Of a stretch of 64,000 nt of DNA, positions 3,055-64,000 are shown one piece after another. The position numbers and the translations under genes are program-made. The stretch comes from Tubiluchus corallicola. Its lineage: Eukaryota; Animalia; Priapulida. Numbering within the stretch: position 1 is the stretch's first letter; each line of letters starts with the position of its first letter. The notes below the pieces were generated by a model. The model was not told the DNA's origin. It made no database searches and saw only the letters and a program-made list of their open reading frames with translations. The stretch is taken from positions 124,001-188,000 of the forward strand of contig JAQGDQ010000005.1 in assembly GCA_030141605.1 (NCBI GenBank). Reading direction: 5' to 3'.

Positions 3055-3885
3055 TCAGCTGGGATAGGTGTAATTAAATAAGAGAAAATCTGGTAGATAT
3101 TTCTTAAACAATTGTTGAATAACGTGTGGATGGATTTTTGAGAATGCTTTTTTCCACGAAAACGAAACACTTTTTTGAGCAGGATATTTTATCAAGTCTT
3201 CCATACCCAGTTTTCTTAACACATGCTTTACGTCTGCCGAAAAAGTTTCATGCTTGCCGATGACGTCATATTGCACGTGACACGGATTGCATAAATCAAT
3301 GTACCTCGCCCAATGATCGTCTGCTTTCCTTATTCGAGGCAGATACCTTGCAAATTCTCCTATTGTGACGGGTGGACGATCCTCGGCTGTACCTGGGTGT
3401 GAATTTCTCACCATTAGTTTGATTTTGGCTCCAGTTAGGTTTTTGAACAGTTCGTTCCCAGGGTTCAGTTTGTCTCGATATGCGGAGAAAATTCGTTCAA
3501 ACGGATGACGAACAAACATAAACTTGAAGTAATATTTAAGCCTGTATCCTTGCTCTTCCTTGCTATAATTACCTAGCAGTTTCATCACTTTGTACACGTC
3601 GAGGTGTTCGTTTTCTATCTCATTAATTTCGTTCATTTTTAAAAAGGCGTACTTCCAGTTTGTGCTGCCTACTTTAGGCACGGAACAGTAAATAAATTTA
3701 TGTCTGTCGTCTACGAAAAGCCGTTCCAAGTACTTGGTTTTGTCAGATTTTGAAAAGGTGTAATTAGCACAGATCTTGCTGACTAGTTCTTTTCTAGCCA
3801 TATAGATGTCGTTGCCATTTTTAAATTGCTTTAATACAACAGGTCGTTGAAACATTCTAAGTGTTTGCGTCTCAACAGTAACTAC
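3055..3885 (-). CDS. Carbohydrate sulfotransferase (CHST11/CHST8-14/HNK-1ST family), main catalytic exon
   Basis: 5'-PSB motif CSVPKVGSTNWK, 3'-PB motif FVRHPFERIFSAYRDK, then DHW, CNPC, YDVIGKHETF and terminal DFLLFNY. Acceptor ttttttacatttgcag precedes 3885 in phase 0, so the ORF part 3886-4014 is probably intron. Confidence 0.9.
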   Translation of the reverse strand, partial: VVTVETQTLRMFQRPVVLKQFKNGNDIYMARKELVSKICANYTFSKSDKTKYLERLFVDDRHKFIYCSVPKVGSTNWKYAFLKMNEINEIENEHLDVYKVMKLLGNYSKEEQGYRLKYYFKFMFVRHPFERIFSAYRDKLNPGNELFKNLTGAKIKLMVRNSHPGTAEDRPPVTIGEFARYLPRIRKADDHWARYIDLCNPCHVQYDVIGKHETFSADVKHVLRKLGMEDLIKYPAQKSVSFSWKKAFSKIHPHVIQQLFKKYLPDFLLFNYTYPS

Positions 3886-4880
3886 CTGCAAATGTAAAAA
3901 AAAATATTTAAATATGAAGTTTTTTAGCGGAAAACAGTCATGCATGTACAAAGTATTTAATGCTTCTTCTCTGATTGTATTACTTACTTCTGAAAAATCT
4001 TTTCGCATGTGCATTCAATTTGTTCCACTGTGACATACGTTTAGAAGTCTTATGGGCAAAGCTACACAAATTTCTTACCACATGAGGATGTTAATCAAGC
4101 ACAGTTGTACTAGCACTCTTATGGTTGCCAAGGACTTTAGGTTCTTTAGAGCTACGAAAATCTTTGCCTAGAAACTTTTGTATAAGGAAAAACCATATTA
4201 GAGCGGAAAACATTAATTTCGTACATGATTAAGTAAATTAAACTTCAATTCCAGTGCATAATAGAGCTGGTTTTCATACCTGGACGCAAAACTGGATTGA
4301 ATAGCATTTGTGTTACTATAAAGATCCCGTCGCGGCTTTTAAAACACTAATCCTAATATTATGAAGAGAATGGTTTATTGATTTTGGTCAATTTCTCCAT
4401 GATTTCATCATTCCAAAACAAAAACGAATACATGTATATACAAATTATTCCCCGTGAAACACGAGAACATTTGGTGGAAGATGTGACACGACATTGTTCG
4501 CATTATTGTAAGAAAGACTGGCAACACTTTAACAAAGGTACGCAGTACACTATTTCCTACATTACTAAAAATATAAGATACGTGCAGCCGGTAAGCTGTA
4601 ATAATTCTATCACTTTTCATGTTAATTTGGTGATATTTAGGTAGAACCGTAGAAATCTGGCCGAGATTAGTTGCCATCTACTGCTAGCTATCACTGTTTT
4701 GCCATCTCATGTAAATGATTGTTGTACACCTTGAACGGTGAAGCTTTTGACCGCGAATGTATTAGAGAGCATGGTTTTTTTTATTAGCTTTTGCTCACAT
4801 TAAGTAGCTCCATAGTTGCACGAGGTACATCTACAGCAGAGTGTTGTAATAATATTAATTATGTTGCCTCGAAAACACAC

Positions 4881-13373: not shown

Positions 13374-14286
13374 AATTACACACACTCATATATATATATA
13401 TATGTATATGCGCGGCCTTTTCTTTTTTCATATATTATATTTTTGTCGTCGTTGAAACGATTTAATTTTTTTATCGTTATTATATGACATATCATGACAT
13501 CAACGGCCTATATTGTTGGTTATTTTTTTATAATGTGACAAACGATACAAGAACCGAATTTTAAACAATATAAAAACCGAATTATCACCCTGAGAAGGAT
13601 TGGATTAATCAGCTTTAGTAAAATGTGACAATATATTACCAGATCAACACTTTATAATTTGCTTTATAATATTAAAACCGCGTTTTAATAGTATCCATCC
13701 TACGTTGCATGATTAAATCCTTCAAGATCTAAGACGGTGAGTTTTGACTGCTTTCTGGGTTACCTTATGTCATGTATTTATTTTCCTAATTTTACTGCAA
13801 TCCTACCTAACCCAAATAATGGAGACTCTTATAGCCTAAACTTCTGCTAATAGCCCAGTATGTTTATATGTGGGATTAAAATAGGCCAACTCAGTGAACA
13901 AGTATGAAAACATGCGACTAAAAAAGTACAGCAATCTTGTACAGTTGCACTACCATCCATAAAGTTTGCATTTCTCTAGTATACAACATCATAGATTATC
14001 ATTCCACAAAATGGCCTGGTTACTCACATCGTTGTAGTTAATATCATCATCAATGTTGTCATCATCGCAGTCGTCATGATGATCATCATCATCATCACTA
14101 TCATTATTACCGTCATTATTATCACCATCATCGTCACCATTATTGTCCTTACGTCGTCGTCATTGTTACATTACTCTTAGGCTGAACGGTGACACAAACT
14201 GATCAAATAATTTTTACCAATTATTTGCCAATAGTCGCTAATTATTCCGACTGGTTATATACATTACTAAAGGAAATTTAGTAATA

Positions 14287-15235
14287 ATGGGAAAAGAATC
14301 TTGTGTAGAGTGCAAAAGGACGAAATCAACAAACGAGATAAGAGAAAGTGGACTTATGCTATGCGACGAGTGCTACGAAAAAACAGCTACTCTAGATTCT
14401 TCAACTCAGCCTGATGAACTAGTGTCAGAGGACGAAGATATGCAAGAGTCTGATGAAGACGACGTGCCGAGTCCAGACTCTACAGCGATGCTAGCGAAAT
14501 TAAACAGATCCATGAGTAGCATTTCAAAAGAAGTTTCAGCAATTCAGAGATTTCCATGCACAAGTTAATAGTCTCAAAATAGACTTACAGAAGAAGATCG
14601 AAGAGGAGGTTGCCCGGATACAGAATGACGTGTATGACGAAGCTGCACGACGACCTAAAAAGTTTAAAGGCCGAAAACGAGACGCTACGAAAAACTTGTA
14701 AAAGTTTGTAGAGGTTGCAGAAAATCATCAAAATTACTTGAACAACATGGATATTGCAAGAAGAGAAAGAAATGTAATTGTGACGGGCGTCCCTGAGGAA
14801 GAAACAGACGGTATGAGTGAAGACAGCGACAAATGGGAGCGTATAGTGTTGGTGTTACAAACTGAGGCTGCATCTGCTTCAGTTCAGACAATAGGAAAAC
14901 GTGCCGACAATTATGAAGGTCGCGGCAATACCTCGCAAACACCGAGGCCTATATTAATAAAGTTTAATAGCGACCGAGAAGCCAAATTAGTACTAACAAA
15001 TGGAAAGAAACTGAAGACCGCATCCGAAAATTGGCTACGAAAGGTGTACATTAGGGGTGATCTACCGCCTGGTGTTAAAAAAGCATATGCAGAGCTACGT
15101 GCTAGATTTAGAGAAGAAAAAGACAAGCCTGAAAACTTTGGTCACAATTTGAAAATAGATCTGCATGCCAAGACTATTAGCAGAGACGATGTAGTTTTAT
15201 ACAAAACCCAACAAGATTTAAAGCAACAGGGGTAA
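14287..15235 (+). pseudogene. LINE ORF1 (zinc finger, coiled coil, RRM-like domain), frameshifted
   Basis: Pieces 14287-14568 and 14738-15235 are in different frames; ORF1-type motifs as listed for the element. Confidence 0.8.
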
Positions 15236-15240
15236 CAACT

Positions 15241-17883
15241 ATAGGTAAAACATTTAAAATTTGTGTTTGGAATATAAATGCGGTGAAAAGTAAATGCAAT
15301 GACAGTAAAGTTTTAAAATTGTTAGTTCAATTTGATATTGTGTTTTTAACTGAATGCAAAACGGCTCTTAACTTTTGTGTTCCTGGTTTTGAAGTATTTA
15401 GAAGTCAATTTGCAAAGAGTGAGGGTCATAGGGGAGGTGTAGCAGTTCAAGTCAAACACAATTTGCGTGATGAGATAACTAGCATAATTTTGGGCGAAAG
15501 AGATTTGGTATGTTTAACTCTAGCCAGTGTACCAAATTTAGTGTTATGTGGCTGCTACATTCCACCTAGCTATTCCGCCTATTTTAACATTCAAAATTTT
15601 GCAAACCTACAGTTGCTCATTTTGGAAACCAGTGAAAGAGGTTAGGAGTTATTTAAGTCTCCTATATTCATGTTAGGAGACTTAAATAGCCGTGTCTCCG
15701 TCAGTGTGATAGGTTATAGTCAGTTGAAAATAATATCACGTATTCTGTAAACCCAGACGAAATACTTAACGCGCATGGTAGATAACTATCGTCATTGTGT
15801 CATTTGTGTGTTAGCAATAAGTTGCTGGGAGTTAACCATTTGAATGATCGTTCTTTTGATGAGGGCTTAACGTTTAGAATGACATTAGATGGGTCTCTCA
15901 GCTTGACCTCGCCGTTGTCTTGGCGGATTTTGTCAATAACATTAGTGAATTTTCTGTATTTAACGATAGTAATTGATACCCTTGTAATTGCGCATCTATT
16001 TCGCTGACTGTTACGCCAGATACATTACACATGGCTCTTCTACTTAGTAAAGTCTCGTTCATTAGGGGATTACTCCAATTTAGTAGGTTTTGCCAACGCG
16101 TCAATGGTTGTCATAACAATTAAAGCATGTGATATCGACTTACCCAAGAGCTTCTAAACTTAGACTGTAATTCTTTGTCGGTCAACTTCCTAAATATGAT
16201 TGAGCTAAGAAAGCATATGGAAAGCCTAACAGTAGGATTTTTCCAGCACGTAATAAATGGCATAATCTTTTAGAAGCCGGCAACGAAAAAGACATATGGA
16301 AGACTATCAATTTTAAAGGAGAAATTCATAATAGAGTAATGAACAAGAGGCCCACGGACGCGGAGTTTAAATTACACTTCGAACGGCTGCTTTAATTACT
16401 GTAATACTGTGGAAGATATAACAACTGAACTTAATGACCTTAACGTATATATACGTTTGCTTGATGACCTGTTTAGTGTCCATGAAGTCTTAGACGTAAT
16501 TTTCGATCAGAAGTCGAGAAAGAGTTCAGGGCCTGATGGTGTCCAAACGTCCTGGTTTAAATATATTAATGGTAACTGGTTGGGTGTGTTGACGTTAATT
16601 TTAAACACAGTGGTTTTGCAAGATCCTTTTCCTGCGCAATGGAGTTTAGCCAAACTTGTTGCATTGTTTACAAAAGGAAATCTTGTGTTATAACTGTGGA
16701 ATGAAACAAGGATCTCCTAGTTCTTGTCTGCTGTTTTGTTTGTACATTAATCCTCTAGTGCGTGCTCTGAAGAATTCAGGACCAAATGGTTGGCTAGGAA
16801 ACCTACATGGATTATTCTTTATAGACGATATAGCTGTTATGGCAACTTCTCGCCAACAATGTTTGGATAAATTGAGGTAGATTTTAGTACTGAATTCGGC
16901 ATGGATATAAACAAAACCAAGACTGAGTTTATGGTTGTTAACGGCAGTAATCATTGTCGAGAGCTGCTTGTTGTTGATAAATTAGCTGTAGAGCACACTT
17001 TCTATTATGTATATCTAGGTGCAGTAATTACTGCTGATGGAAAAGGAAGCACAATGGCTGCAAAGCACTTGGAGGTTAAAAAGCAGCATGTCCACAAATT
17101 TCATGCTTTTCTGTACAAAAACAATGACTTCCCCCCTTTTTGGATGAAAAAGAAGGTCCCGGGTAGTGCTTTATTGGCTGGCATCTTTTACAACGTTGAA
17201 ACCTGGAACTCCAATTTCAGGTATACTATAGCAGAGTCAACGTATCTAGAACTGTTAAAGTCTCTTTTACCAGTGAGAGCAAGCACGTGCAACGAACTAG
17301 TCCAAATAGAAAGTGGATATCCTTCATTTAAAGTGTGGCTAACAGCACACCAGATTAATATGTGGTCTAAACTGTCTTCTGAACCGGAGAAACACGAGCT
17401 TTTAATGACTGTATTGAATGTTAGCAGAGCTGTTAACGGGAAGTTATCGAAATTTTTGGATAAATTACGGAGCAACAAAGTTGTTTTTCTAGAAAGGAGC
17501 AAGCAAAATTTGATTACACCTATAGAAAGAAGTGATTCCACTAAGCGCATGACGTATAGATAGCTAAACCCAGAATTAAAGACTCCTACAATTCCTTACG
17601 AAACTCTTGAACGGCATCGTATTGGTTTTACAAGGCTTCGTCTGCAGTCACATAGCCTTCGAATAGAAACTGGACGGTGAAGACGAGAACCTAAAGAGCA
17701 CAGATTGTGTGACTGTGGTGCAATACAAACAGAAATCCAGATTATTAGTGAATGACCACTATAACAGAACAAGGTAGGAATAATTATCGTAACACAAACT
17801 TCTCAGACTGTGCAGAATTCTTTGAAAATGAGCTAGCTTGTGTCATTTGTTATGAACTATTACGCAAAGTAGAAAGTGATTAA
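15241..17883 (+). pseudogene. LINE ORF2 (APE endonuclease + reverse transcriptase), fragmented, with a deletion in the RT
   Basis: Motif series spread over several frames. The sequence jumps from LFTKGN (about 16680) straight to GMKQG (about 16698), so the NYRPI/QxGF/first-Asp RT segments are missing. Confidence 0.88.
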
Positions 17884-21732: not shown

Positions 21733-22650
21733 AATTAAGTTCGATTCCTTTTACAAACAATTTTAATTTACTGTAATGCATTTTTACATTTTCACGGTCA
21801 TCTACAATATTCGAAATTATAAGACAGTTCTTCCATTGATAAACAGTTATTTATGCAGATTATAGAACATACTTGTATTTCTGAAGCTTGCTCAACTGTG
21901 CAGTTTTTGTAACAGAACCACCGAGTAATAATATTTTATAATCTATATATACGATCAAAGATTACTATATACATGTTAATAACCGCTATCATTTCACTCG
22001 AACATAACATATTGCATATAAAACTTTTTTTAAAGTACTGGTATTTTAAATGTCAACTGAAAGTCACCTTGCATTAGATGCCAGAAAGGTTGCGCAAATG
22101 TTAATGGTTCAACTTTTCAATGTGTGGAAAGCAATTAGAAACACATAACTACTTGGTTAGTTTAATGGTTACTTCTTGTCAAATGTAAAATAATGGTGTG
22201 ACTCGTGAGAACATAGCAATTTTTTATGTCAGCAGTATTGTTACAGAAACTCATTCTCATAAGACCGTACAGTTATTATTAAGCTGTACGTATGTGTGAT
22301 AAGAAGTACAAATGTAAAATCAAGAATCAAGTCTGCACGTTATAACATTAACGATTTGGTGTTACGTTGTGGCACGAAAATTTCATTTTAAGTACGTAGT
22401 TCATACATTTACAAAATGCAATAGTACTTAATGCTACTGAGTGGCATTGCCTCATCGCTACAATCTGATTGATTTCACAGCTGTCAAACTGATCAAATTC
22501 AAATTCAGTAACTGATATGCAGACAAACACTTAATGAATGAACGGTAAAAATTATAATACCGCTTCAGGTTTCCAGGTCGTCTGCTTCTCTCTTCCCCAG
22601 GAGAATTGTTTTTAGCGAAACTTTTCAGCTATATCAGTGGACTGTAAATG

Positions 22651-23407
<757 letters not shown>

Positions 23408-23440: not shown

Positions 23441-24629
23441 AACTATATTCTAAAAATTTATGTTAAAATATAAAAAGAAAGAAATATAAAAATGAGCATT
23501 TTGAAGTAATTTCATTGCTTAAACATTAATTGTTTGTAAGTGGATAGACAGACATTATGCAACATTCAGGGGTGTGCAAATTATCTGACTAGCCGGGCCA
23601 CATTAAACTTTCCCGCAATTCCTGCGGGCCACAGGCAGTTTGATCAAGGAGCCAAGTACAGAAAGGCCTAATAACAATTTTTTTGCATCCGACCTGCGTA
23701 CATCATTACTACTACTACGAAACTATTTTAGAAGTTATTAAAATTTATATTACAAACCATATATTTCTACTTTCAGGACAGATAGTGGTAATTTCATTGA
23801 TACAGTCTGAGTAGTACAGTGACATTAAGCTACAACCGTCTTGTAAGGATTAATGGCATCCGATCTAGTAGAAAAAACTAACCGCACTATCTTTGGGATC
23901 GTGGCACGGACTTCAACTGGATATACTCAATTAATCGCCTAGGCCGCACTTTCATTAGATTGATAAATCTCTTCGCGAGCCGCATAAATTCTCTATGAGG
24001 GCCGCAATTTGCACACCCCTGATATAACTGCATTTTAAGTATAATTGTAACTGAAACATGCACACGTAAACATAACTGAAACATACAGAATTTGGTTGCT
24101 TTGTCAGCATCAACTCTCTCCTGTAATGGTAAAACTCCCAAACTAAGGATGGATTACTTCTGAATGCAGTCGGAGATGCCAGCTCCTAAAATGAGGAATC
24201 AGAATAATTACAGCACAAATAAGACCTATTGCTACTATAGCTAAATGTATCTAGCACAAATGCAGATAATGAGGACTGATGTTGACGACAAAAGTATTCA
24301 GATATCAAAAAATAATAGCAACTGACAACTGCTCAGTTGGTGGTTGTTAATTTCCAGGAAAGCCTCACTTATTAAGAACTAACGTTATTACACAAATATG
24401 TTGTCAATTGTTGACATGTAGAAGTGGCCTGCATGACATATGCAATTTTAAGCATAGCGTGCAATTCATGTCTTCTATAAGGTCCACAAAATTGACAAAG
24501 ATGCCTTCTGAGTGGTCTATCCCAGTTTTCGACTTAAGCATGGTTTCGTCACTGTGAGTGTTGGTTTAATTTTTACAATACTTAAATCAAATACAATTAA
24601 AAGTTACCGTTGCCTGCCACTGTCTCCAA

Positions 24630-24630
<1 letters not shown>
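23441..24630 (-). pseudogene. Duplicated SIRT5 fragment (last 23 nt of exon 1, intron 1, intact exon 2 at 24087-24185, most of intron 2)
   Basis: Near-identical to 31871-33065 in the same orientation; one 5-bp deletion and a handful of substitutions seen. Confidence 0.95.
23567..24021. mobile_element. hAT-type MITE, copy carried inside the duplicated SIRT5 fragment
   Basis: TIRs CAGGGGTGTGCAAATT/AATTTGCACACCCCTG; left target duplication partly deleted. Confidence 0.85.
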
Positions 24631-25401
<771 letters not shown>

Positions 25402-33294: not shown

Positions 33295-33606
33295 TACTAC
33301 TTTTAAACACTAACAAGGAACTTTCACCAAAAACGGCCGAAGTCAGTGAACAGTACAGTACAGAAATGTTGTTTACAATGTTATTCTGCCACCTATTGGG
33401 CACTTTCAAAGCTTTTTAGGAATTTTTAGTATAAAGATTTGTTGATAGATGGCAATAACATGATGCACGTTTTGACTCGTAAACATAAACTAGATTGTCA
33501 CAGTTAATATGTTTATTTTAGTAATTTAGCAACGTAAATTTATAATTTTCCGCTGAAATGGTCTTTTTTCGCCGAAATTTTTCGCGCGAAATTCGTGTGT
33601 GAAAGT
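33295..33606. promoter_or_regulatory. Putative bidirectional promoter shared by SIRT5 and MLYCD
   Basis: Only 312 bp between divergent ATGs. Contains the palindrome TTTCGCGCGAAA (33580-33591) and CTCF/YY1-like motifs at 33386-33399 (minus) and 33446-33454 (plus). Confidence 0.7.
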
Positions 33607-35193
33607 ATGATTTCACTTTCTGTGAATCACAATTTTTTCTGTATCCCCAAATGGCTTATTGTTGAATTAAGTCCAAGTAATGCCCACTCGAGTAACAATT
33701 TGGCGGGCACTGGTTTTAACGAATTGAAGCCAATATTTATGGATTTAAGATCAATGGCGACGATACCAAAACAGCACGAGGAAAGCTTTTTGTCTAGCAG
33801 ATTTTCAACGTCGGTCATGGATAGGGTTGAGATACTCTTAAATGACATAATCGATCACCCGCTTTACGTAGATGAACACAAAACTAATGACCTTTGCAGT
33901 TTATATCTCTCTTTCAATGAGGAGGAAAAACTATCTTTTCTGACTTCTTTATCTATAGGTTATAGCATTGACCATGCTGACATACTAGAGCATGCAGAAG
34001 CTGCATACAATCGTCAAATAGATGAGCAACAAATGTATATCCATGAAAGAAAACTGATGTCAGCGTTGGTGCCAAAATACCTACATGTTTTTAAGGCTAT
34101 AGCCCGACTAGAAGGAGGAGTGAAGTTTATTGTTGGTTTAAGAGCAGATGTTTTGGATGCAATTGAGAAAACAAGAGGCTGGAGTTTACAAAAATATTTT
34201 CTTCAACGGCTTAGCGATTCACTCAAGGACTTATTGTCTATGTGGTTTTTTGTCGGCTTGCTTCATGTACAACGTGTCACTTGGCAAAGCTCTTGTGATA
34301 TTTTACAAAAAATATCTGAATATGAGTCTGTACACCCTATTTCAGACTGGTCAGACCTTAAAAGGCGTGTTGGTCCATATCGGCGTTGTTATGCTTTTAT
34401 GCACTCCAGCATGCCAAGTGAGCCACTAGTTGTGCTCCACACTGCACTTACTCCTTATATATCATCCAAGATTCACACTATATTGTTATGCACTGGAAAT
34501 AAATCTAAACCTAATGAAGTGGAAGATAAGGGCATTATAAATAGTGCTGTCTTTTATTCTATCACGTCAACTCAGAAGGGTTTGCAGGGCATAGAACTAG
34601 GAAACTATCTTATTAAATGTACTGTTAGGGAGCTTATCAAGGAATTTCCACACTTGCAACAGTTTTCTAGCCTGTCTCCCATTCCTGGATTTCGCACGTG
34701 GCTTATAGGTGAAATTAACAGTTCCATTTCAAAACTTGAAAGAAGTGCTTTCCCCCTACGACTGCAAGAACTTCAGAATTTGTCCAAACTTTTTAATGTA
34801 AAACAAGATCGAATTGTAGTTCTGACATCTTTGAAGCAAACTCTAATTAGCTGTGCCTGGGTAAATTACCCTGCTCTCTGTGATACTCTAAAAGTTATTT
34901 TAACAAGACTTTGTGCTCACTATCTTTGCAATGTGAAGCGCCGTGGATATGTGATGAACTATGTTGCTAATTTTCATTTGTCGAATGGTGCCGTGTTGTG
35001 GCGCATTAACTGGCTGGCAGACACCTCTCCTCGTGGCTTGAAAAATTCTTGTGGACTGATGGTAAATTATAGGTATTATCTGGGAAACACCGATGCCAAG
35101 AGCAGACGCTATCGCCAAACTTTCCATGTTGAAGCTTCTGAGGAAGTTTTGCAATTATTGCAAAGTGACTGCTTAGGCAAAAGTAAACTGTGA
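33607..35193 (+). CDS. MLYCD: Malonyl-CoA decarboxylase, single coding exon, C-terminal PTS1 (SKL)
   Basis: Motifs EGGVKFIVGLRAD, YESVH, DLKRRVGPYRRC, FYSITSTQKGLQGIELGNYLIK, FSSLSPIPGF, VANFHLSNGA, GLMVNYRY, and ...SKL*. First in-frame ATG is 33607 (ORF-track start 33595 is GTG); the true start is uncertain (33739 also possible). Confidence 0.95.
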   Translation: MISLSVNHNFFCIPKWLIVELSPSNAHSSNNLAGTGFNELKPIFMDLRSMATIPKQHEESFLSSRFSTSVMDRVEILLNDIIDHPLYVDEHKTNDLCSLYLSFNEEEKLSFLTSLSIGYSIDHADILEHAEAAYNRQIDEQQMYIHERKLMSALVPKYLHVFKAIARLEGGVKFIVGLRADVLDAIEKTRGWSLQKYFLQRLSDSLKDLLSMWFFVGLLHVQRVTWQSSCDILQKISEYESVHPISDWSDLKRRVGPYRRCYAFMHSSMPSEPLVVLHTALTPYISSKIHTILLCTGNKSKPNEVEDKGIINSAVFYSITSTQKGLQGIELGNYLIKCTVRELIKEFPHLQQFSSLSPIPGFRTWLIGEINSSISKLERSAFPLRLQELQNLSKLFNVKQDRIVVLTSLKQTLISCAWVNYPALCDTLKVILTRLCAHYLCNVKRRGYVMNYVANFHLSNGAVLWRINWLADTSPRGLKNSCGLMVNYRYYLGNTDAKSRRYRQTFHVEASEEVLQLLQSDCLGKSKL

Positions 35194-45700: not shown

Positions 45701-46182
45701 AAAACGACAAAGTACCTGTTTGAAGACAGTAGAGCGAACGAAATAAAACATTCTTGCGCTTTAGATGGGCGACGAAAACGTAAAAAAATCGCAGATTTTC
45801 TTACAGCACATTTTAGAATTAGAATTAGAATTTAGAATTGTTATTATTTTAAGCCGATCATGCGCGTATGCAGTGGGTCATCAGAAATATAAGAACTTTT
45901 GAGATTTACTTTATATTAAACAACAATTTTTCACACAAGAAAGCAACAACAATGTATGTCACAAATGTTGTTAAATTATTAATTTGCAACAATCGACAGG
46001 AGGCGCTGCATTTTCCTGGAAGATTAAATTATCAAGTGTTTGACCTTTCTACCTTTTCAACGGAATTACCCTTTTCAGTACACTTGATCAAATCCTCCTC
46101 CGTCCCCTTAGCTATGCCAGTGTCAGTAGACCCAACTGATTAGTGCGACATTTTGACTTTCAAACGCTAAACTGCATAAAAA

Positions 46183-46370
46183 CATTCATCATCGTTCTTT
46201 ATCATTATCATTGTACATTCATCGTCATTCTTTATCATTATCATTGTACATTCATCATCATCTGCACCTTCACTGCTGTTACAGTCAACATTATCATCAT
46301 TATCATCATCGCTATCATCATCGTCGTCACTATTATCAGCAGCAACAGCAACAATAGCTACAGCAGCAGA
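46183..46370. repeat. Degenerate (ATC)n/(CAG)n tract with a 33-bp internal duplication, upstream of Ptf1a
   Basis: Direct reading. Confidence 0.85.
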
Positions 46371-46539
46371 GATGATTAATATAACAGAGATGATTAATGT
46401 GTTTTTATGTAATTCTTTGTATCGTAAAATTTGAGACAATCATGTTCTTCTTGCAATCAGATTAATATGCATTTACTGAGACTTATCAGCACAAACCTTT
46501 CACCGCCAAGCATACGCTACTGATTGACATCGCTTCTCT

Positions 46540-46665
46540 ATACTGGCACACGTCTGCTTGCCATTCATTGGCTACCTGTAACTGAGCCACGCGACGCGAC
46601 GCGTTCCATTAAACGCTGTTGATACGTACTCATATAAAACCAGAGTCTGCGTGTGGTTTAGACGG
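46540..46665 (+). promoter_or_regulatory. Ptf1a core promoter
   Basis: TATAAAA at 46633-46639, about 50 bp before the ATG; reverse CCAAT (ATTGG) at 46567; local CpG-rich patch. Confidence 0.6.
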
Positions 46666-46688: not shown

Positions 46689-47136
46689 ATGGATAACATG
46701 ACCCTAGAAGGCATTGGGAGACAATTCCTACAAGAATTTGATTTGAATTTGTCATCGGAAGATGAGTATGGGATGTACAGTGACTCCCCTACCAGTTCGC
46801 CTTACTCCATCAATGTGGACCAAGAGAACTTGTCCTCGAAGCATCGACGGAGGAAGAAGAGGTGTCCACAACAATTAGTGCATCAGCGTCAAGCGGCAAA
46901 TCTGAGAGAGAGAAAACGAATGCAGTCTATAAATGACGCGTTCGAAGGACTGCGTTCACACATTCCTACGTTACCGTACGAGAAAAGATTGTCTAAAGTG
47001 GACACGTTGCGGCTAGCCATTGGCTACATACATTTTCTAACAGAGCTGGTCGACTCGGACAAGCAAGGTTCGGCACAAAATTCGGACAGTTTGCGCGCAC
47101 AGGAACACAAAAAAGTGATAATTCAATGTCATAGAG
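46689..47136 (+). CDS. PTF1A: Pancreas transcription factor 1a (Ptf1a/Fer1-type bHLH), exon 1
   Basis: b[59 protein letters not shown] followed by [10 protein letters not shown]; donor AG|GTAC in phase 1. Confidence 0.95.
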
Positions 47137-49983
47137 GTACGATTACTGATAAATATAAAATTGTCTTAATGTTGGTAATTCTAAATTGAAAGGTTTTTAT
47201 AAACTGATATTGGTATACTTAAATATAAAGCTATAGCGAATAATACTATATAAAGCTCGTCCCGTTAAAATAACTTACAACTATTAAATAAAAAACTCGC
47301 CTGTTAGAATTTTAAGCGTACGGCCTGCAAATCAGTTCTAGTGACAAAACCCTTTTTAGATGAACCTAAAAAGCACATGGACTAACTATAGTTAAATATA
47401 ATAATTATAATTAAGTATTAATTATTTACTAAATTAATTCTTTAATTAATTTTCAAAAGAAATTAAAACAACTTTTAATATTATTGTATACACGCTGAAA
47501 CTGACGAATGTTTTAATTATACCTAATTAAAGCCTATAAAAATTTATATTTTGATTATAAAAATTATAGCTCCATTTGATAAAATTACTAAAAATGCAAA
47601 AAGCGTTTTCTTATTTTATTATTATTTCTCTTATACATTCCAAACCTGTCCCAGCAATTATCTACGTCTTATAGTAATAAATTATTTTTACTACATTGTA
47701 TAAAATGATAGAAAGCAAATAATAATATTATGTGTATATCAACTGATATCTTTGAACGCGTGTCTGTTAAACTTAGCTATCATCTATGAAGTATCTTCTT
47801 CGTTTACCTGTCAATCATAACCGTGTCATCAGCAAATAAGACTTCATCACTGATATATAAATTTACCAAACAAGTCTACGTAATGAACTTTTTACATAGG
47901 TATCATTACCGCACATCACATAAAATTTCACAACAAAAATGTGACTTTGCTAAACTTGCTAATCTCATATTAGTAAATGACTTACAATAATAATTCTTGG
48001 ATAAATGATAAACACCTGCTTTTATATGCCAGTCAAGTGTCTTATGGTGTAAAATTACCACTATAAATCATTTTAAAAATTTAAAAAATAACAGTATAAT
48101 GCATAGTCTTAACAGACAGTAACATAACTAGTGGGATGTGAAATATTTCCACACTAATCTCAAGATTTTGCAACTGGAAAAACTGATTGGTTTAGAGGCA
48201 AAAAATACGAACTACTTTCAATTAATACGCATTTATTTTTCAATCTTTTTATCGCAGTACAACATTTCTGAGACGGCGCGGTGACAGACTGGCACATTAA
48301 ACTAAGCGATCAATTGAATGATACTAAAATTAAATTGATAGTGGTTATAGAATAAACGATTGTTCGGGGCAAATAGGGTATTCTTATTGTTAAACCAGAA
48401 AGGAATGTTGGCCAAACTCGCTACCACCAAGTAATACTGCTGGGATACTCAATAGACAGAGAGGAAATAGTTTATGTGGGGACAAGCAGGACATTGTTGT
48501 GAGCTTTTACCTTTGGATATGTTACTTTGGAAACTAGCTTATGTTGTGCTAATTGTGTGTTCAGTAAGCACTTGTATTTGTTTCGCAGTTTTAAGTAACT
48601 TTAAAAAACGTTTCGAGCTTAAAGGTATATCAGCTTCTGTCAGTTCTATAACAATTTTAGCAGATAGCGATATCAATAATAAGATAAGGCTGGTTAAGTC
48701 TACTAACAAAAGAGACGAATGATTATAATACGGTTGGTTTAATTATCAAAGTAAAAGTCAATAGCTTATTCAGAGTAAAAGTCGAACAGCCAAAGTATGA
48801 ATATTTAACTTTTTTATGTCGTGTAAAACATAGTCTCCGATTTACTACGTTGTGCACAAACCCCATAAATTTTCCTTATTTGGCACAGATTTCTGCATTT
48901 ATTGGCTCACAATAAAGGCCTAACAACAAAAAGTTTGAAGAAGTAATATAGTTGTAATTTCAGCATAATGCTTACCTTTTTCAGCCAATTATGTAGGCAC
49001 AACGCAAAATTCTTAATCAATATTTTCGCATTTCACTACAATAATTAAGCAGGTATAATATGAACAACACTGCAATTCACCCCTTTCGCATGTATAAGAA
49101 TTATTCATCAATCTCAAGCCTTAAATGCCTATTTACCTAGTCCCTGGTTCGGCTGCGTTAACAGTTTAACGATTTGCCGTGTTTTGGATTAAATTTATAA
49201 TATTTTGAAAGAAAAACCGCGTATAGCTTCATTGCTTTAAATTGGTTATCTGTATACGAGATGCAATTTTATTTCTCGTAACCCATGTAGTAAATAAAGT
49301 TATGAATTTAGCTGAGTTGCCGGAAGTATTATTCTTTTTTCACGTTCTTCTTACATTTCAGCTAATAGTAAAACAAAAGGCACGTGTGTCTGGCCTAATT
49401 AGAAAAAAGGGCAAGTCAAGCTAATTACATCATTCAGTTAGATTAATTAATCAAATTTAAAATTTATAGAAAAAATAAGGACAACCATTTCGTTCAGCCA
49501 GATTTTAGCGCGACACAACACTTTTTCCAATTTGAAAATTCTAAAATGAGATATTGGAAGATAAAAAGTCCCAGCTGTAAATTGAAGTATTGCTAAATCT
49601 GTTTTCTTCATGAAATCAACACTTTTACAAGTTAAAAAATGGTGCTTAGTTTTTTATTGCAGATGTACGTTCTATTCTGATGATAGAATGGTAAATACGA
49701 AAAAATATAATATAATGTCAATGTATCATAAAAAACTTATTGATATTCTTCATGGCCGTTAAAATATACAAAATGAACTTGCACTAATTTCAATAGTTAT
49801 TATTAACCTTTTGTTTATTCATTGTAAAAATATTTTAAATTGAAATAACACTGCGGAGTTTGCATCACTGACACTTCCATTAAATGATCTTTATATTTTA
49901 ATATAGCTATGCTAGTACAGGTGGCTCTTACTCACATATATTACTGTTTTTGCAGAACTTATCCAATTCGTCTATTTTTGCAG

Positions 49984-50150
49984 TGCAATCTGATGAGATG
50001 CTAGGCTTACCGCCTCTGGCTGGTCATTCGCTCTCATGGGTCAAAGGTCACGAAGAGGGCGTTGGCCAGAAGAAACATGCAAAGGTGTGGACACCTGAAT
50101 ATCCTCGTAATGTCGGCGAGCAACAGTCGCCATCGTCAACATCATTATGA
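49984..50150 (+). CDS. PTF1A: Ptf1a exon 2 with the RBPJ/Su(H)-binding C1 and C2 motifs (204-aa protein to the first stop)
   Basis: tttttgcag acceptor in phase 1; encodes LPPLAGHSLSW and AKVWTPEYPR; ends with TGA at 50148-50150. Confidence 0.93.
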
Positions 50151-50672
50151 CTAGACGACGTTGAAGAACCGCCGCCGGATGATTTGACATTAAAAGTGCA
50201 ATCAACTTGTCGTACTGACTACCCAAACTGGAATGTTGCGCGAAAGAAAGTACTTTTATCTGAGCAATCATGGCGAAGAAATGGCTCAGAGAAGCCATAT
50301 TTACCAGTAACTACCAGCGAAACAAAGGTGGGCAAAGGCTCTCTAATAGGTGAGAAGTTGGCATCAGATAATACGGTTTCACATCAAAGTCTTGTATTGC
50401 CAGAAATAACTGGAAACCTGGAGTTACAGACGCCCAGCTGGCTGAAAACAACTGGCACAGTTCTACAACTTTCAACTAATACTTTAACACGTGCAAATTC
50501 CTCTGTTTCTGAGTTTCCAAATACAGCTCGAGAAAGAAACGCTTATTCTTCTTGTTCTTCAGAACAATGGGATGGTTCTTCAGTGACGTCATCACAAGAT
50601 ATTCTTGACAGTTCTTTAGATTCAGCATACCATTCAGATGAATCCTCTGAAATCCAGAATGTAGATTTATAG
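50151..50672 (+). CDS. Predicted stop-codon-readthrough extension of Ptf1a (173 aa)
   Basis: TGA-CTAG context; the same frame stays open (LDDVEEPPPDDLTLKVQ...EIQNVDL) to TAG at 50670-50672 and contains no Met. Confidence 0.65.
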   Translation, partial: LDDVEEPPPDDLTLKVQSTCRTDYPNWNVARKKVLLSEQSWRRNGSEKPYLPVTTSETKVGKGSLIGEKLASDNTVSHQSLVLPEITGNLELQTPSWLKTTGTVLQLSTNTLTRANSSVSEFPNTARERNAYSSCSSEQWDGSSVTSSQDILDSSLDSAYHSDESSEIQNVDL

Positions 50673-53600
50673 GCTACAGGCATAGTTCTTGTCCCATCAA
50701 CATTTCACATCAATGCTAGTTGAGGTTGAATTTACTTCAAAATTCAGAGGCTGAAATTTTGTATTGATAACAGGATAATAACAAAAATTCAGCGTTCACA
50801 CAAACTTACCACTCAGTGTAAATATTATGAATAACCTAAATATTCATATTCATAATGTACTAAACGTATTCAAAATCAAATTTATCTATGTTGTATAGAA
50901 ACAAGTTACATCACATCTAGTCGCATAATTTATTAACCGTACAAAGAATAGCTATAGCTTGAGTTTTGCTTACTTAGATTATTGAGCGCATTTTTTGTAA
51001 CGGATTCATGTAGTTAGCAAAATCGTCTAGAATATTCTCAGAGTAACGCATATAGAGAATTGCAAGAGTTATCTAATGCATTACTTTTCTGACATTTTAT
51101 GTAATATAAATGAAAATCTGTGCTTATATGTAAAGTTCAGAAAAACAAAGGCAAGAAAGCTTTAAATTTGTTGTTACTCAAGGTTTCTTTGTTTTCACTT
51201 AAATTAAAATAATCTCGTTCTTGGTCATAAAGTATATATAGAGAGTTCGTACATTCTACAAAAGCTTAAGTCTGACTAATTATACAAATTATCATATTCT
51301 ATTACTTGTAAATAAGTCTATGAACACGTGTATATTTTATTAATTTATTAAATTTTGTGCTGATTCTAAACTGTGTTACAAAACATTTGTTCAATAACAG
51401 CTTGTGGATCTTAAGTGAAGACACGCAAGTTGGTATTGGGTCTAAGTGATTTGCATGTTAATAATTCTATAAAGTGCAAATAGTCGCCCAGTTTTTCCAA
51501 TACAGCCAACCAGAGTATCACAGCCCCATAAAAATAACTTTATAGACAACATTAACTTTCCACGAGTATACTTACTAGAGGAAACATTAGGATGTTTTTA
51601 TTCTTCAATGAATGGCTTTTCTCTTTGAATTTTGAACAGTGTTGTAAATAAAGTCAACTCGATTTACTCCACTGACAAATGTAATTATTTTGCAATCCAA
51701 CCGGTCTTAAGATTCATTTTCAGAAATGGGGAAAGCTCGAGAAATTTAAAGAATGGTATTTACACATTTTTTGTATTATTTTATTGGGTACTAGAATTTA
51801 TTTACACTACATATCACTGCAAAACATTTGCACAAAATACTAATTCGCGCAATTAAAAGATTAAAAAAGTACATTAAGATAATATCATAAATCAAATATT
51901 AAAACAAACGAAAAAAACGTCTTATAAGGCGTATTTTTGACCCAATGTAACATTAAATTGACATATAAAATAGCATAATTATAATAAGCAGTGCATTTAT
52001 GTAAACTATACATATATTCAAGAAACAGCATTATTATAACTGAAATATAAACGGTTTGGAAAAATAACTTTCTTACATAACGCAGATGTTTCTGGACTCT
52101 GGGTCCCATTTTGAACGTGAAAGCTAAATAATAAAATAATTAAAGTTATGTTTAGTACTTCATATGTTATAATAAAACCGACTTTTATGTCGGGGAGTAA
52201 ATGCAGAAGTTTGTTGATGGTTTTGAAATAATTGCTAAAATGAAAAATACTTCATGCATTCACACGTCTACCTAAATTTAATTCAAAGCGTTATATATAA
52301 ACTTGGTTCATTTTGTTAATGTACGCCACACGAATATAAATAATTTCGTACACATAATAATTATACTTTTGCTATGTTATGCATACAGACCATATGGCCT
52401 ATATAACAGGGTTAAACAATGAGAAGAGAAGATAACATCCTTAAAAACTGGGATTCAGTGAATAGTTGAGTGGTTACGGTGTGTGCTTGGCACGAGAATT
52501 ATTGGACTAGCCAACAAATGGATGATGACGGTCGGAAAAAGAGCTTCTGGTTAGATAGATTCTGCTATGGGCTTAGTCCTGACTGCTTCTCTCGATCAGA
52601 AAAAATGTTTGTCTTCAACAAAGGATTACCTTTTGTAATGACATACTGTAGGTTTCAGTTTTCTCAAACGTCAACATTATAAGTGGAGACAACAGTATCA
52701 CTGAGTGTTGGCTTGCAGTAAGCCAAGCTGTTTAAAAAACTCAAAATTATTGCTTACGTCTCTATAACACTATACAGTTTTAGGTGAACAGTTTATCATG
52801 AGAGCATATAAGGTTTAAACTGCACTATATCAATTAATAAATCTTAGCAGGTAGATCATTTTGGATTTTGATAGGATTTTAGTAGGATTTTGAAGTGTTT
52901 TTAATCACTGAAGGTTTTTTAACTGTGAACCAGCAATGTTGTTTTGCCACGTAATCATCGTTGACTAATGTTGTTGCAGCCTTGCAGGACTATTTTACAA
53001 TTTTCAAGTTTCATTAGCTTATATATCTACAGTAATTTTAGCGTAATTTTAAATTACTCTTATGTGCACATAATTCGAGTTTATTGATAATAATACTGAT
53101 AGTACTATAATTCTTTGGGAAGAATTACACCCCCTTGCCTTGCTTGCCTGTCTAGAACATGGTCATTCGGACCTCTAAATGGCGTAGAATTTCCCCTGTC
53201 CTTCAGCTCTAAAGGTAGATCGTCCCCTTCTAAGATCTATCGACATGTTTCCATCAAGCGTCGTGACTGGACTTTAGCCAAATTGATTTTTAGGTTGTCA
53301 GAAATGGGAGCATCTGCAAGTTGAGACGAATGTTCCCACCGCCTTTGTCAATACTTCAAGTCCAAGTCACTTACTAGACTGCCATTTTGCCGTGCTGCAT
53401 TAAAGAATTGCTATAGAGTTAATTAGGTTTAATTAGTAGGTATTACGCAATTTTCTAACAATTGTTACGAACGAATATAAACAGTCACTGTATAATATTA
53501 TTCACTTTTGATGGGATGTATGGGGTTAATTTTTTTGTATTTTTTGTCGCAAGTTTGAAGCTTCACAACTCACTATGCTAAATTTTTCTGTGAATTTTGT

Positions 53601-58906: not shown

Positions 58907-61760
58907 CTAGAGCATTTATTAACGAACTAGTACGCAATTTACATCGCTCAGAAATTTATAAATTTTGATTCTAGACGTATAATTAAGCGTTCATGGATGA
59001 CTTAGACTGTGTGTTTTTTGGAGGATACTTAATGCTTGAAACAATATAAGTTTGTGTGTATGCGCATAGAATTGCGTACATTGTAAGCGGTTGGCAGCTT
59101 TGTCTTAACTGACTGGTTGGCTCACTCACTCAAAATACATTACTTTAAGAGGCCTAAACTAATGTCTATGGCTTATCGATTTCGTAATCAAATATTGAAA
59201 GTATAAGTTTAAATTTCCTGGTTTACTAGTATCATAGAATGTAATGAATATAACTATTTCAAGATGCAATAAAACTTTACCTTGTATTAAACCTTGCGTT
59301 TTGCGTATTAGTTTTACGTTACGAACTGGCGATATAACCAATCACTTTTAAAAATTCAAATAGCGGTCATTACCGTATATATGAGACCCTAATATTTCTG
59401 GCTTATAAAATGAAAATCTATCAGAGTTTTTGCCCACGTGTGTGGCAAGTGTTAATTTTGCTCAAATTTCTCTCTCACAATAAGTGTCTTCCGCCCTAAA
59501 ATGACAATCACCAGCCACGCGGCGCGGCCTGCGTAAACCTATTTTCTATCATTAACCTAACGAGCTTCAACTCTTTGATTGAGAAATACTGGGTGAAAAA
59601 TGTTGTTGTAACTCTTTGACTGCAATGCGTTATGCATAATATGATATACATTGGACGGATGTTAGTGTTGTTGACCCATTCATGTCTATTCTGTAGCAAG
59701 TCAGAAGTCAATCCTCTGAACTCAATCACACATTCAGAGAGAATGATTTTGATATGTGCATGACGATTTTCTCATGATGATTTCCTTCTGCAAGATAAAG
59801 GCAGCTTTGGACTTGGAGACTAATTTGAGTTTAATCAGCTGTCGTCCCCTTATGTGAAATAAGAACATGAAAGGAGGATGTACAATAAGAAGAAACAACC
59901 ATACGCTACAAGGTCTTACATTAAAGGCTACCACGGCTGTGTTTTCTTATATGTTTTACTATGTTGTGTTCTTCTGCCGAACTTTTTGTAATTATACTAT
60001 ACCTTCGTTGTTATTTATGAAAAATACATAACTGCCACGGACTGCTCTTTTAAATAAATCTAAATTCAGTATCAAAGCCGAACCAAAAATGATTGTAACG
60101 TCACATTTCAAAATTCTTAGATCTTTATTAAATTAAAAGCAATTTAATCAAAATTTGTGGTTTAATAACTATGAAACGTTTGTACCTCCAGAAAAGCAAC
60201 ACCAGCTGAAATAGAAGAAAAACATTTAATAGTTAACTGCAAAGTAATTTATTTGTACATAACATTTATAACTGTACATAATGGATACGAAAATATTAAA
60301 AATAAAATGTTAAAATAATTATCTTAGGACGTTTGAATGACTTACAGTACTTGTAGCAACAGACTTATGATTGGGAAATCGAAGTTTAGCAAGAAAAGAC
60401 ATCACTATTCAAGTGATTTCTATTGTAATGTCTTTTCTCGTTTTGAATGTTTTAATAAACACAGAATAATTTGCACATAATATTAAAGTGAATGTTTTTA
60501 TTAGTTTAGATATTACTACTATGTAATCATATTGTAGAATGTTATGATTACAGGTACCTGTGCATTATCGTTTGGTACAACACGGTGTATTGGGCGGGGA
60601 CGGCAGGAACTGCAAACAGAAATCTTCAACTATTTCCGGAGACTCCAAAATTTGATTTTCTGTAATATAAAAAAAATTCATTAAACAAATCATATTAACG
60701 CAAAATAAAAAATGTTAGTTACAAAAATCAAAATTTCCTAAAAACACATACCATCTAACACCAAATTTTTCCACAGTGAAGGGCAGCAATATTTTTGATT
60801 GTCCTGGTAGCGATTTCTTCCAACTGGTGACGGCTAAGAAAAGAAAACGTGTTTATCTATCGTTTATTTAATTTTTATACATTAATTCAAGCAATAAAAA
60901 CGAAATGTCCAGTGCTATGTCTATAATGTAATAGGCATATTGTTCTCAAATATAAGCATTAGTTACAGCCTTCCCTTGCGCATGTCTTTATTCATTGTGT
61001 CTCAGTGCTTTTTTTCGTGATTGTATCTTTTTAGGTGTAATATTTTTGAATGTGTTAAAATACAAAAACACTAAAAAATTTAGTAATAGTAATTATTATG
61101 TGATAACCATGTGATTATTTTCTCTTATAATTTTTCGCCTGAATTAAATCACAATGGTAGTTTGAAAGGGTATACTTGTTTCATAAAATTGTGGGATTTC
61201 TCATTTTGGCATAAAGAATTAAATTTGTGTCATAGACTAGTTATTGCGAAGTAAGAAACAAATATTTAGAAATATATTTGAACTATATTCTGACAACTAC
61301 CCAAACAAGGAATAATTATTTCTTGAACGGGGCAAATAATGTAAAATAATCAGTAGTTTTTTACTAACAAATGTAATTAAGTTTTACTGTGTTTTATTAC
61401 AATTTTTAATTTGCTATACAGTTGAGCAAATTTTCGCTTTCGTTAAACACCTCAAAGTCCCTATGCATCATTAGTGAATAGTTTTAAATTAACATGCACA
61501 CTTATATTTATATTAAAGCATTCATTGATTGATAATACATGTATGTACAACCGGCAAACAATTACTTTGCTAATGTAACAAATGTATTGCGGATTTTAAT
61601 TTAAAGCTGAATAATGTCACATTTTTACAGTGATCTTACAATGAAAAAATATTTGTAATTTCAGAGCTAACAAGACTTCTAAAACAAATCTATGACATTC
61701 AGTTGATCTTCCAACTGGATAACCATAAATGTTAGATGAAATTAACCTTGAACTAGACCG

Positions 61761-62042
<282 letters not shown>

Positions 62043-64000
62043 CTACTCCCCCCAACAACATCTATATTTGGAAACCGTAATATTGCGTGTAGCAATATGT
62101 TTTAAATATTAAAGGCTTTACGATGGGAGAAATTGACAATATTGTAATTAACACTGACGTAATAGCATTCAGCAATGATTCAGTTTGCGTTGTGTACAAT
62201 ACTTTTCTCAAAGACAGGCAAGAACAACATGACATTGTTCAAAATGTTTGATAGTCCGTTTGAAAATCCGTAAAAGCCAAAGCAGATGGCGGCGTAAGCG
62301 TGTTGCTCTTTGCCACCCAAATACACCAATCACAAGCAATTTGCTCTTATTCCACACCTTTATCTGCTTTTCGCCCAACATTGTCCACATAATAAGCCAC
62401 CTTTGTGAATAGGTTCAACAATCAAACGAAATGCTGAAAGAATTCGTAACGTACAATCTGGTTGTACAATACCAAATAAGATGCCTCACCTGAGTTTTGA
62501 CGACATGCATGCATCACTGAAGCACTGCAAGGTAAGGAGACTTAGGAGAGGTAACAAAAAAATCACTAAATCTTCATCTACGTATTATGTGCCCAAAAGT
62601 AATAGTTATCTTTGATTTCCTCTAACTGTTATTGTTTTAAATGTGTCATTTTGATTTATGTCGATCCTTTACAGCAACAAGAGTCAATAAAAACGAGGGT
62701 GACACTACGCACACCCACAATGCGACAATGTGAAAATTGGTTTAATCCATTATTTCAGTCTCAGCTGCATCAAGAGCATTAAATAAACGCAAATTCCGGA
62801 GAAAAACACGTGAGATAAGATCTAAAAAGCAGAGTGATTTCGAAAAATAGCCCACCTACAAACAGTTCTACTCGATAATGCGCTAATATTTTCCGTTGGA
62901 CTCATGTAAACTGTAACACGCAATAAGTTAACTAGATGATCTTGCACAATCACCAACTTGGTTTTAACTGGGTTCTTCAACTAGAAAAAAATCTGGGTTA
63001 TTTTCAGATTATTGTAAAAAAACAAAGCAAACACAATGAAATATAAATTTGTGGTTCTTTGTTCCTTTTAAGGAAAATGCAATGAATAGTTAAGATCAGC
63101 GCTAAAATTTGTTCCGTGTCTACGAATGGAAAACTTCTTCAGGTAACTAAACTATAGCAACAGAAAGAAGTACACTGGTTCTACACACCATAGATATGAT
63201 AAACCTATAATTTTCCGTAACGAGTTTATTTTTAATTATAGATCGAAAAAACAGATTAAATCTACTGTATTTGTAACTTTAGTCAAGTAGTCGCATAATT
63301 TCTGCTGAAGTTTATCTCAATTCTACTCATAAATTGAGTGCTAAAGTAGCAAAATATATAAACGTTAACTCATACTTTTCTTAAAGACACTGGTTGCTTA
63401 AATTACTTATTTGTTTATTCTACCACTATTTAACAACTGTCGTTTAAGTTAACTGAGACCCTTTCACTTAATACACTTAACTTGTACCTGACAGAATAAA
63501 TTTGTTCAAGGAGCCACACAAAGATGCCTAACAATACAAACTTTCACTTAGCCTAGAACTCATTTTCTGTCAGTGTCTCCGCTCAACAAATGCTGACCAC
63601 AATGGATAACTCAGAAATACTTCACAACATCACGTGCAGAACTAGAATTGTGTGCATTCAAATCTCGCGAGGCACATTTAAACTTGAAAAGTAATTGTCT
63701 GACTATATATTAATACATATCCAAAGAAAAGAGGTATTGGGAAATTCATGAAAAAAATGACGACTGATACAAAAGGGCATCGCGTTCTTAAAAATTGTTC
63801 TGTTTTTTACATTTCTAACTGTTTTTTACCAAGTTTCGTGCGTTAGACTACACTATGCAAAAATATTCGAAATAATTTTTTGAATTGTTTAGCTTAAGCT
63901 ATGATGTTACTCATTCAAGTTTACAGTAAATTTAATGATGAAAAGTTATAAACTATAACAGAACATAAAAAATTGAAAACGAAGAGATGACAAGTAAAGG

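Follow-up and report, generated by a model that had tools for sequence, protein, structure and literature searches.

A Ptf1a gene lies on the forward strand of the window, the 64,000-nt stretch of DNA that was analysed, with its coding sequence divided into two exons by a single intron (Table 1). The assignment to Ptf1a, first made in a sequence-only reading of this DNA, is confirmed by a bHLH domain (residues 66-117, in exon 1; Pfam HLH, E 2e-22) and by the best named matches, which among the matches listed are Ptf1a, with that of Priapulus caudatus the nearest. In a tree of 37 rows, picked out of 128 proteins for their spread over invertebrates, the protein joins Priapulus with support of 100/99; judged by sequence, the animal appears to be a priapulid-type worm, outside Pancrustacea. 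Like the Ptf1a/Fer1 family at large, the gene encodes a bHLH domain, two tryptophan motifs and a short tail and has one intron after the CHR residues; unlike it, the gene is followed by a long open frame, and none of the orthologs among the matches listed carries such an extension. The tryptophan columns of both motifs are invariant in a 16-row Ptf1a alignment, the motif columns as a whole are invariant or nearly so, and the exon 1/exon 2 junction is the same as in the spliced proteins of relatives, P0005 and P0008, which come from public assemblies. A putative TATA-like box, read from the sequence, is located upstream at 46633..46639 (+). Simple repeats rich in ATC, in which one unit is duplicated, occupy 46180-46380, about 300-500 nt 5′ of the Ptf1a start. 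The Priapulus protein P0011 has an additional stretch ahead of the first tryptophan motif that resembles the translated last 27 nt of the present intron (49956-49983), which hints at an upstream acceptor used or annotated in Priapulus.

Elsewhere in the window, a single unbroken ORF of 551 codons encodes malonyl-CoA decarboxylase (33538-35193, +; Pfam MCD and MCD_N), and a sulfotransferase exon lies at 3055-4014 (-; Pfam Sulfotransfer_2); each ends in TGA-TAA and has no second ORF. Broken ORFs at 14242-17563 (+), with ORF1-, endonuclease- and reverse-transcriptase-like pieces, are what we take to be a decayed non-LTR retrotransposon. Long (GA)n and (CA)n microsatellites are found at 22612-23057, 24570-25051 and 61617-62112, and two (GA)n tracts with common flanks suggest a local duplication.

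Table 1. Ptf1a and the observed and predicted features past its first stop codon, in window coordinates
Feature	Position	Strand	Remarks
Ptf1a coding exon 1	46689..47136	+	149 codons + 1 nt; phase-1 donor at 47137
Ptf1a intron	47137..49983	+	GC 0.295; strong acceptor at 49983/49984
Ptf1a exon 2, coding part	49984..50147	+	contains both family tryptophan motifs
Ptf1a tryptophan motifs	HSLSW 50025-50039; VWTPE 50085-50099	+	
TGA stop with CTAG 3′ context (leaky-stop motif)	50148..50154	+	TGA at 50148-50150
Second ORF, predicted readthrough extension	50151..50672	+	173 codons, then TAG at 50670-50672
First ten residues past the stop	50151..50180	+	resemble the acidic-proline end of vertebrate Ptf1a (post hoc)
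5′ arm of predicted stem	50154..50173	+	+4 to +23 after the stop; core +9 to +21
Conserved end block of the extension	50484..50657	+	codons 112-169; 50/58 identical in P0004
Pyrimidine-rich AG, possible alternative 3′ splice site	50542..50563	+	phase 1, in frame with the exon 1 donor
3′ arm of predicted stem	50570..50590	+	loop of ~400 nt
Acidic-hydrophobic motif ILDSSLD	50601..50621	+	residues 151-157, within the sole predicted helix
DSAYHS	50619..50636	+	invariant in P0004
Candidate polyadenylation signals	51203..51652	+	ATTAAA at 51203 and 51347; AATAAA at 51647

The sequence-only reading had noted that exon 2 ends in a leaky stop context followed by a long open frame, and had predicted programmed stop-codon readthrough. 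The end of exon 2 indeed reads TCA TTA TGA CTA GAC GAC (50142-50159), which includes a TGACTAG heptamer; with both strands of the 64,000-nt window counted, 6 of 2401 TGA sites have it. The same frame then stays open to the second stop, and this downstream ORF has no in-frame ATG, as had been stated; the lengths given for the two products, 204 aa at the first stop and 378 aa with readthrough, are both correct. The argument that 173 open codons make a long frame for AT-rich DNA also holds, and chance is excluded: none of 20,000 base shuffles was open, the chance of an open second ORF from base composition is 1.5e-5, and the remaining two frames of the stretch contain 12 and 11 stops. GC content is 0.41 in the second ORF, compared with 0.295 in the intron and 0.297 past the second stop. 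Its codon score of 0.163 was reached by none of 203 non-coding windows (-0.15 +/- 0.07) and exceeds 99.6% of its own base shuffles (P = 0.004). The antisense strand of the second ORF has no long ORF. The tail had been described as rich in Ser and Thr, which together make up 26% of the extension, and its net charge is -10. Searches of the extension found no Pfam families and, in the ESM Atlas, low scores only. One further ATTAAA, a candidate polyadenylation signal, lies inside the second ORF at 50189.

A stop in this position could be a private nonsense allele or a sequencing error, as the earlier reading had itself cautioned. A second haplotype (X1 contig 7, 49523-51017), possibly from the window's own sample, carries nine placed differences and one unplaced gap, with none of the nine at the stop, and a contig from another sample and study (X4 contig 14, 50038-50188) has no differences, with stop and context kept; the coverage of the X5 and X6 contigs lies outside the stop. 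P0005 and P0008 terminate where the window's Ptf1a does and differ from it at 4 of 127 and 2 of 201 residues, a comparison that, as for P0004, is made at the protein level, so that the stops of the relatives are known from the proteins alone. The tail that follows the lysine of KVW is 19-76 residues long (median 30) in 115 proteins having the second tryptophan motif, and it measures 22 in the window's Ptf1a. Because the stop is kept in haplotype and sample, because the relatives' proteins also terminate there, and because the tail falls within the family's range, the TGA is best regarded as the ordinary end of the family's protein, which rules out a private lesion or error. The bHLH and the tryptophan (RBPJ-binding) parts are both complete ahead of it.

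No Ptf1a joined to the extension through a sense codon was found among the 120 matches listed of 1133 (110-399 aa), nor in a search of 1.84 billion representative proteins, the search that covered proteins above 399 aa. In 47 exon-2 Ptf1a loci of other animals, taken from metagenomes and having 33 distinct ends, TGA-CTAG is not found once and no second ORF exceeds 73 codons. As both the context and the long ORF are missing from these loci, the leaky stop and its second ORF are lineage-limited. A tblastn comparison of the extension with the 47 loci gave nothing meaningful, and a metagenome scan with the extension gave no match. Three cockroach- or termite-like loci (L017, L021 and L032) have second ORFs of 72-73 codons behind TAA-A; their close relatives L028-L031 break at 27-50 codons, so these three loci are unlike conserved readthrough. 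In the 3′ UTR region (50709-51300), X5, which bears the same species label as X1, yields colinear pieces that are ~8-15% different with several non-triplet length changes, and these may represent a cryptic lineage or a repeat.

The downstream frame has a counterpart in a relative. Four matches to the query came from the representative search, P0005 and P0004 being the relevant ones; the other two, P0006 and P0007 (E 3-5e-4), looked unrelated and were dropped. P0004 is a separately called ORF of 157 aa that is 71% identical to the extension. It and P0008 each derive from a Logan contig of 1728 nt, and from this equal length alone we infer that the two sit on one transcript contig in the order Ptf1a, stop, downstream ORF. 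Aligned with codons 16-169 of the extension, P0004 is identical at 108 of 153 positions, contains no stop and differs by indels of four codons and one codon; the frame is thus open in the relative with frame-preserving indels, the pattern that the earlier reading had proposed to look for. This comparison involves one relative at the protein level, and an ORF search can find only frames kept open. In neutral simulations run to the identity of P0004, in which indels were assumed to be one-tenth of substitutions and one-fifth of indels to be triplet, 1-4% of runs remained stop-free, and <=0.03% remained both stop-free and frameshift-free.

Constraint is spread unevenly along the extension. Identity to P0004 is 58 of 94 across codons 17-111 and higher in the end block of codons 112-169 (change-point permutation P = 0.0097), and the residue changes across codons 17-114 resemble neutral ones (mean BLOSUM -0.78 versus a simulated -0.58 +/- 0.25). 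In this sequence comparison, coding constraint is clear for the last 58 codons of the extension only. Passages of PMC5100048 report it as a rule that readthrough regions change faster than first ORFs. A neutral-looking linker would also be expected of a relic or a harmless leak, in which a recent stop in once-coding sequence, or tolerated noise, has left an extension that is functionless and merely undecayed. Both differences listed for X1 within the extension change residues, and one of them weakens the stem described below, which likewise favours a relic. So do the availability of a single comparison, that with P0004, and the contig of the second relative (P0005; 1872 nt), on which no extension ORF was called in the representative search or in the extension-profile searches at 86-303 aa and 30-85 aa; the profile retrieved P0004 alone in the longer range and nothing in the shorter. 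We nevertheless consider a relic quite unlikely. The stop stands at the family's usual end and is common to the proteins of three lineages, a neutral stretch at the divergence of P0004 nearly always gains a stop or a frameshift, and the end block is held tighter than the linker.

The second ORF could also be translated on its own as a small acidic protein, by re-initiation at a non-AUG start or, in the relative, possibly at an AUG at codon 12 or 16. The call of P0004 begins with Met at codon 16, a position that is GTG in the window; gene callers write Met for GTG and TTG starts. The lack of an in-frame ATG in the window's ORF argues against independent translation, a free disordered peptide without the DNA-binding part has no obvious use, and both the leaky context and the stem would be left unexplained; we judge it highly improbable.

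Folding predictions place a long-range RNA stem past the stop. Its core of 13 bp runs without a break from +9 to +21, with an A-A mismatch at +8. The 21 nt from +4, a test region picked after the helix had been seen, pair with 50570-50590 at -25.8 kcal/mol, and none of 208 other 21-mers from exon 2 and the extension pairs as strongly; the same region taken as a 45-mer is ordinary (-26.8 versus -26.7 +/- 3.8). The predicted energy stands out from shuffles (P = 0.002) and from synonymous recodings (P = 0.024), pairs +12..+20 have probabilities of 0.87-1.0 in four windows, and the stem is present in the minimum-energy fold of the spliced mRNA. The stem test gives a z of -4.55, whereas the best value among Ptf1a loci of 29 other animals, of distinct sequence and with >=450 nt behind the stop, is -2.61. 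Nine windows of 80-150 nt revealed no remarkable local hairpin 3′ of the stop. The sole residue change of P0004 in the 3′ arm is Thr146 to Ser and, to judge from the protein, a single-base path to it would close the mismatch. The X1 difference at +18 breaks a core A-U pair and shifts the predicted energy from -21.0 to -17.1 kcal/mol.

A TGA codon with a predicted duplex adjoining it might also be recoded in another way, as selenocysteine or through A-to-I editing that turns UGA into a Trp codon. For selenocysteine, an Rfam scan of 49900-53000 with E up to 5, a method of limited sensitivity, yielded no SECIS match, and the aligned orthologs have no conserved Cys at the place of the TGA. Editing is opposed by the position of the TGA itself, outside the predicted helix, and by the spliced relatives' contigs, which still read a stop. 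Either form of recoding is very unlikely.

The main rival to readthrough, which could also coexist with it, is alternative splicing into the second ORF at 50563 or 50155, or removal of an exitron at 50107-50562. Use of the acceptor at 50563 would yield a protein of 185 aa and use of the AG of CTAG, at 50155, one of 321 aa, each with the bHLH domain and the acidic end and without the RBPJ-binding tryptophans. Both AGs share phase 1 with the exon 1 donor. No AG of the locus has a better pyrimidine tract than the one at 50563, which has a crude score of 15.5 against 14 for the true acceptor, ranks among the top 0.1% of 7142 AGs and lies close to where the most conserved part of the extension begins; 41 of 5000 synonymous recodings reach its score. 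The exitron, a cut of 456 nt, would set the acidic motif 22 residues past the KVW lysine, a spacing that is 19-24 in spiralian tails. However, splicing does not account for the open frame, with in-frame indels, that two lineages have in the 137 codons ahead of the AG, for the conservation of codons 112-137, which lie 5′ of it, at 22 of 26 positions, or for the presence of a leaky context and a stem at +9. The pyrimidine tract at 50563 consists of Ser codons that are kept in P0004, CTAG is without such a tract (70th percentile), and the donor at 50107 matches poorly. P0005, P0008 and the unbroken P0004 point to the unspliced exon as the main form, although contigs drop rare variants. Altogether we hold splicing to be an unlikely source of the open frame.

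Within the extension expected from readthrough, a two-sequence AlphaFold2 model has low confidence throughout (mean pLDDT 42) and a single helix, at residues 149-159; the extension is thus predicted to be disordered apart from one acidic helix. The ILDSSLD motif in this helix fits the pattern [LI]LD[SN]xL[DE]. Seven of the 14 named spiralians scored have this pattern at the C-terminal end of Ptf1a, and it is absent from the rest of the 128 proteins; P0004 has the motif with one change. Its spiralian likeness, spotted by eye ahead of scoring, has a shuffle P of 2e-4 over seven columns and of 0.012 over twelve, when the upstream Cys columns are included. At the other end of the extension, the first ten residues past the stop beat all 154 other extension 10-mers and 765 controls as a match to the tail of vertebrate Ptf1a, the 49 vertebrate tails counting as one motif; set against spiralian, arthropod, ambulacrarian and Priapulus tails, they have no likeness beyond chance. 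In sequence terms, the vertebrate-end and spiralian-end likenesses point to coding sequence older than the stop that precedes it, and convergence of acidic motifs is as likely an explanation. That a leaky stop was inserted into sequence that once coded for Ptf1a, so that access to ancestral C-terminal motifs is now gated by CUAG and a stem spanning 400 nt, is a tentative proposal that we regard as rather doubtful.

Both activity and turnover of vertebrate Ptf1a have been linked to the C-terminal part of the protein: passages of PMC6054649 describe a C-terminal tryptophan required for RBPJ binding, and passages of PMC7697007 describe degradation via a lysine near that tryptophan. A tail at the C-terminus could alter activity or turnover, since the RBPJ tryptophan and the degradation lysine sit there. 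By analogy, the extension might act as an added activation surface and bring faster turnover. The DSAYHS sequence near its end has what we take to be a resemblance to a phosphodegron of the beta-TrCP type, and a search of the literature for this degron variant found no paper.

The elements at the Ptf1a stop each have precedents. Passages of PMC5868278 report 1.3-6.7% readthrough at UGA-CUAG for each of 17 newly tested human genes, with the best reaching up to 17%, and a passage of bioRxiv 10.64898/2026.07.14.738498 reports that nearly any change in CUAG cuts readthrough. In the same passages of these two sources, the human genes AQP4, MAPK10, OPRK1, OPRL1, MDH1, LDHB and VDR have a stop and 4-nt context identical to those of the present Ptf1a. 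Moreover, VDR too is a transcription factor, and its C-terminal extension measures 67 aa, compared with 173 aa in Ptf1a. In contrast to these human genes, the Ptf1a described here is an invertebrate gene with a predicted long-range stem and is known from sequence alone. The stem in turn fits, as a model, the layout of type II readthrough in alphaviruses and kelch. Passages of Firth et al. 2011 (PMC3159437) give VEEV a spacer of 8-9 nt, 11-12 bp, a loop of 101 nt and a 10-14-fold stimulation, and a predicted 8-nt spacer, 14 bp and 268-nt loop for Drosophila kelch. As there described, the nsP3-nsP4 junction of VEEV and SINV and kelch resemble Ptf1a in having UGA, a spacer of ~8 nt, a stem of 10-14 bp and distant arms in coding sequence. 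They differ in the loop, which is ~400 nt in Ptf1a against 101 in VEEV and 268 in kelch, and in the context, since kelch has UGA-AUG whereas Ptf1a would combine the CUAG motif with a stem.

A further parallel is Drosophila Dfr/Vvl, in which, according to passages of PMC8417969, readthrough adds a disordered, activation-type extension with a developmental effect, and in which the stem begins at +9 and its distance matters (passages of PMC13170385). In the accounts of these two sources, Dfr/Vvl, like Ptf1a, is a transcription factor that acts in development, has a C-terminal extension that is disordered, and has a stem from +9. It is unlike Ptf1a in its UAG stop, in a local hairpin from +9 to +59 and in being an insect POU factor, and function is demonstrated for Dfr and predicted for Ptf1a.

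Readthrough is likely at this locus because a leaky TGA-CTAG and a predicted stem are followed by 173 codons that are open here and also in a relative. We therefore think it probable that programmed readthrough of TGA-CTAG produces a minor Ptf1a isoform of 378 aa beside the form of 204 aa, a prediction in which the sequence-only reading is borne out by the kept stop, the relative's open frame with in-frame indels and the failure to find a fused sense-codon form in the protein searches above, with the predicted stem as an addition. That reading had also appealed to the abundance of readthrough in insects. Its argument from the stop motif stands, whereas insect abundance is not directly applicable, because the priapulid-type lineage lies outside Pancrustacea, the group to which passages of PMC5100048 assign abundant readthrough; the same passages report that it was not found in a centipede.

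The proposed mechanism begins at the stop itself, which stands at the family's usual C-terminus with the DNA-binding and RBPJ parts complete before it. UGA-CUAG alone would permit readthrough, at levels that in human cells lie at about 1.3% and up to 17%. The 13-bp helix 8 nt past the stop, with its partner ~400 nt downstream, would stand at the mRNA entry of the ribosome and delay termination, in the manner of alphaviruses and, by prediction, of Drosophila kelch. A near-cognate tRNA would then presumably be inserted, and the ribosome would unwind the stem and reach the TAG at 50670. Selection would keep the first ~110 residues as an open disordered spacer and the last ~58 to sequence. The least certain step, to which we give somewhat under an even chance even if readthrough is granted, concerns function: the acidic helix may be a co-activator-binding surface, and the degron-like motif may shorten the life of the isoform. 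Readthrough would in this event adjust how strong Ptf1a-RBPJ activation is, and how long it lasts, in particular cells, as in Drosophila Dfr/Vvl.

Readthrough of the UGA-CUAG and stem type is already known, and the Ptf1a case in a priapulid-type animal appears to be new. Literature searches on Ptf1a readthrough, on priapulid readthrough and on Priapulida with Ptf1a returned no relevant paper. The names Fer1 and Ptf1 and a fly gene number are absent from the searched supplements of three papers on Drosophila and Anopheles readthrough, PMC5100048 (two of three files), PMC3840789 (the listing and two small files) and PMC13278127 (one passage and one file), a weak negative, since a fly case might be entered under other identifiers.

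To our knowledge, readthrough has been little described outside insects, vertebrates, yeast and viruses. The Ptf1a case in a priapulid-type animal, which concerns a core regulator of cell fate in nerve and gut, would offer a test gene for structured readthrough signals in a lineage that split before arthropods, and with a CUAG motif and a predicted long-range stem in one cellular gene, their separate contributions become testable in one reporter. Gene models that end at the TGA would miss the 378-aa isoform. If the extension holds the family's old C-terminal motifs, it would give a rare view of the birth of readthrough, with a stop placed in coding sequence and no UTR recruited. Should priapulid genomes prove to have many such cases, readthrough as a means of controlling developmental regulators would reach back beyond Pancrustacea towards the base of Ecdysozoa.
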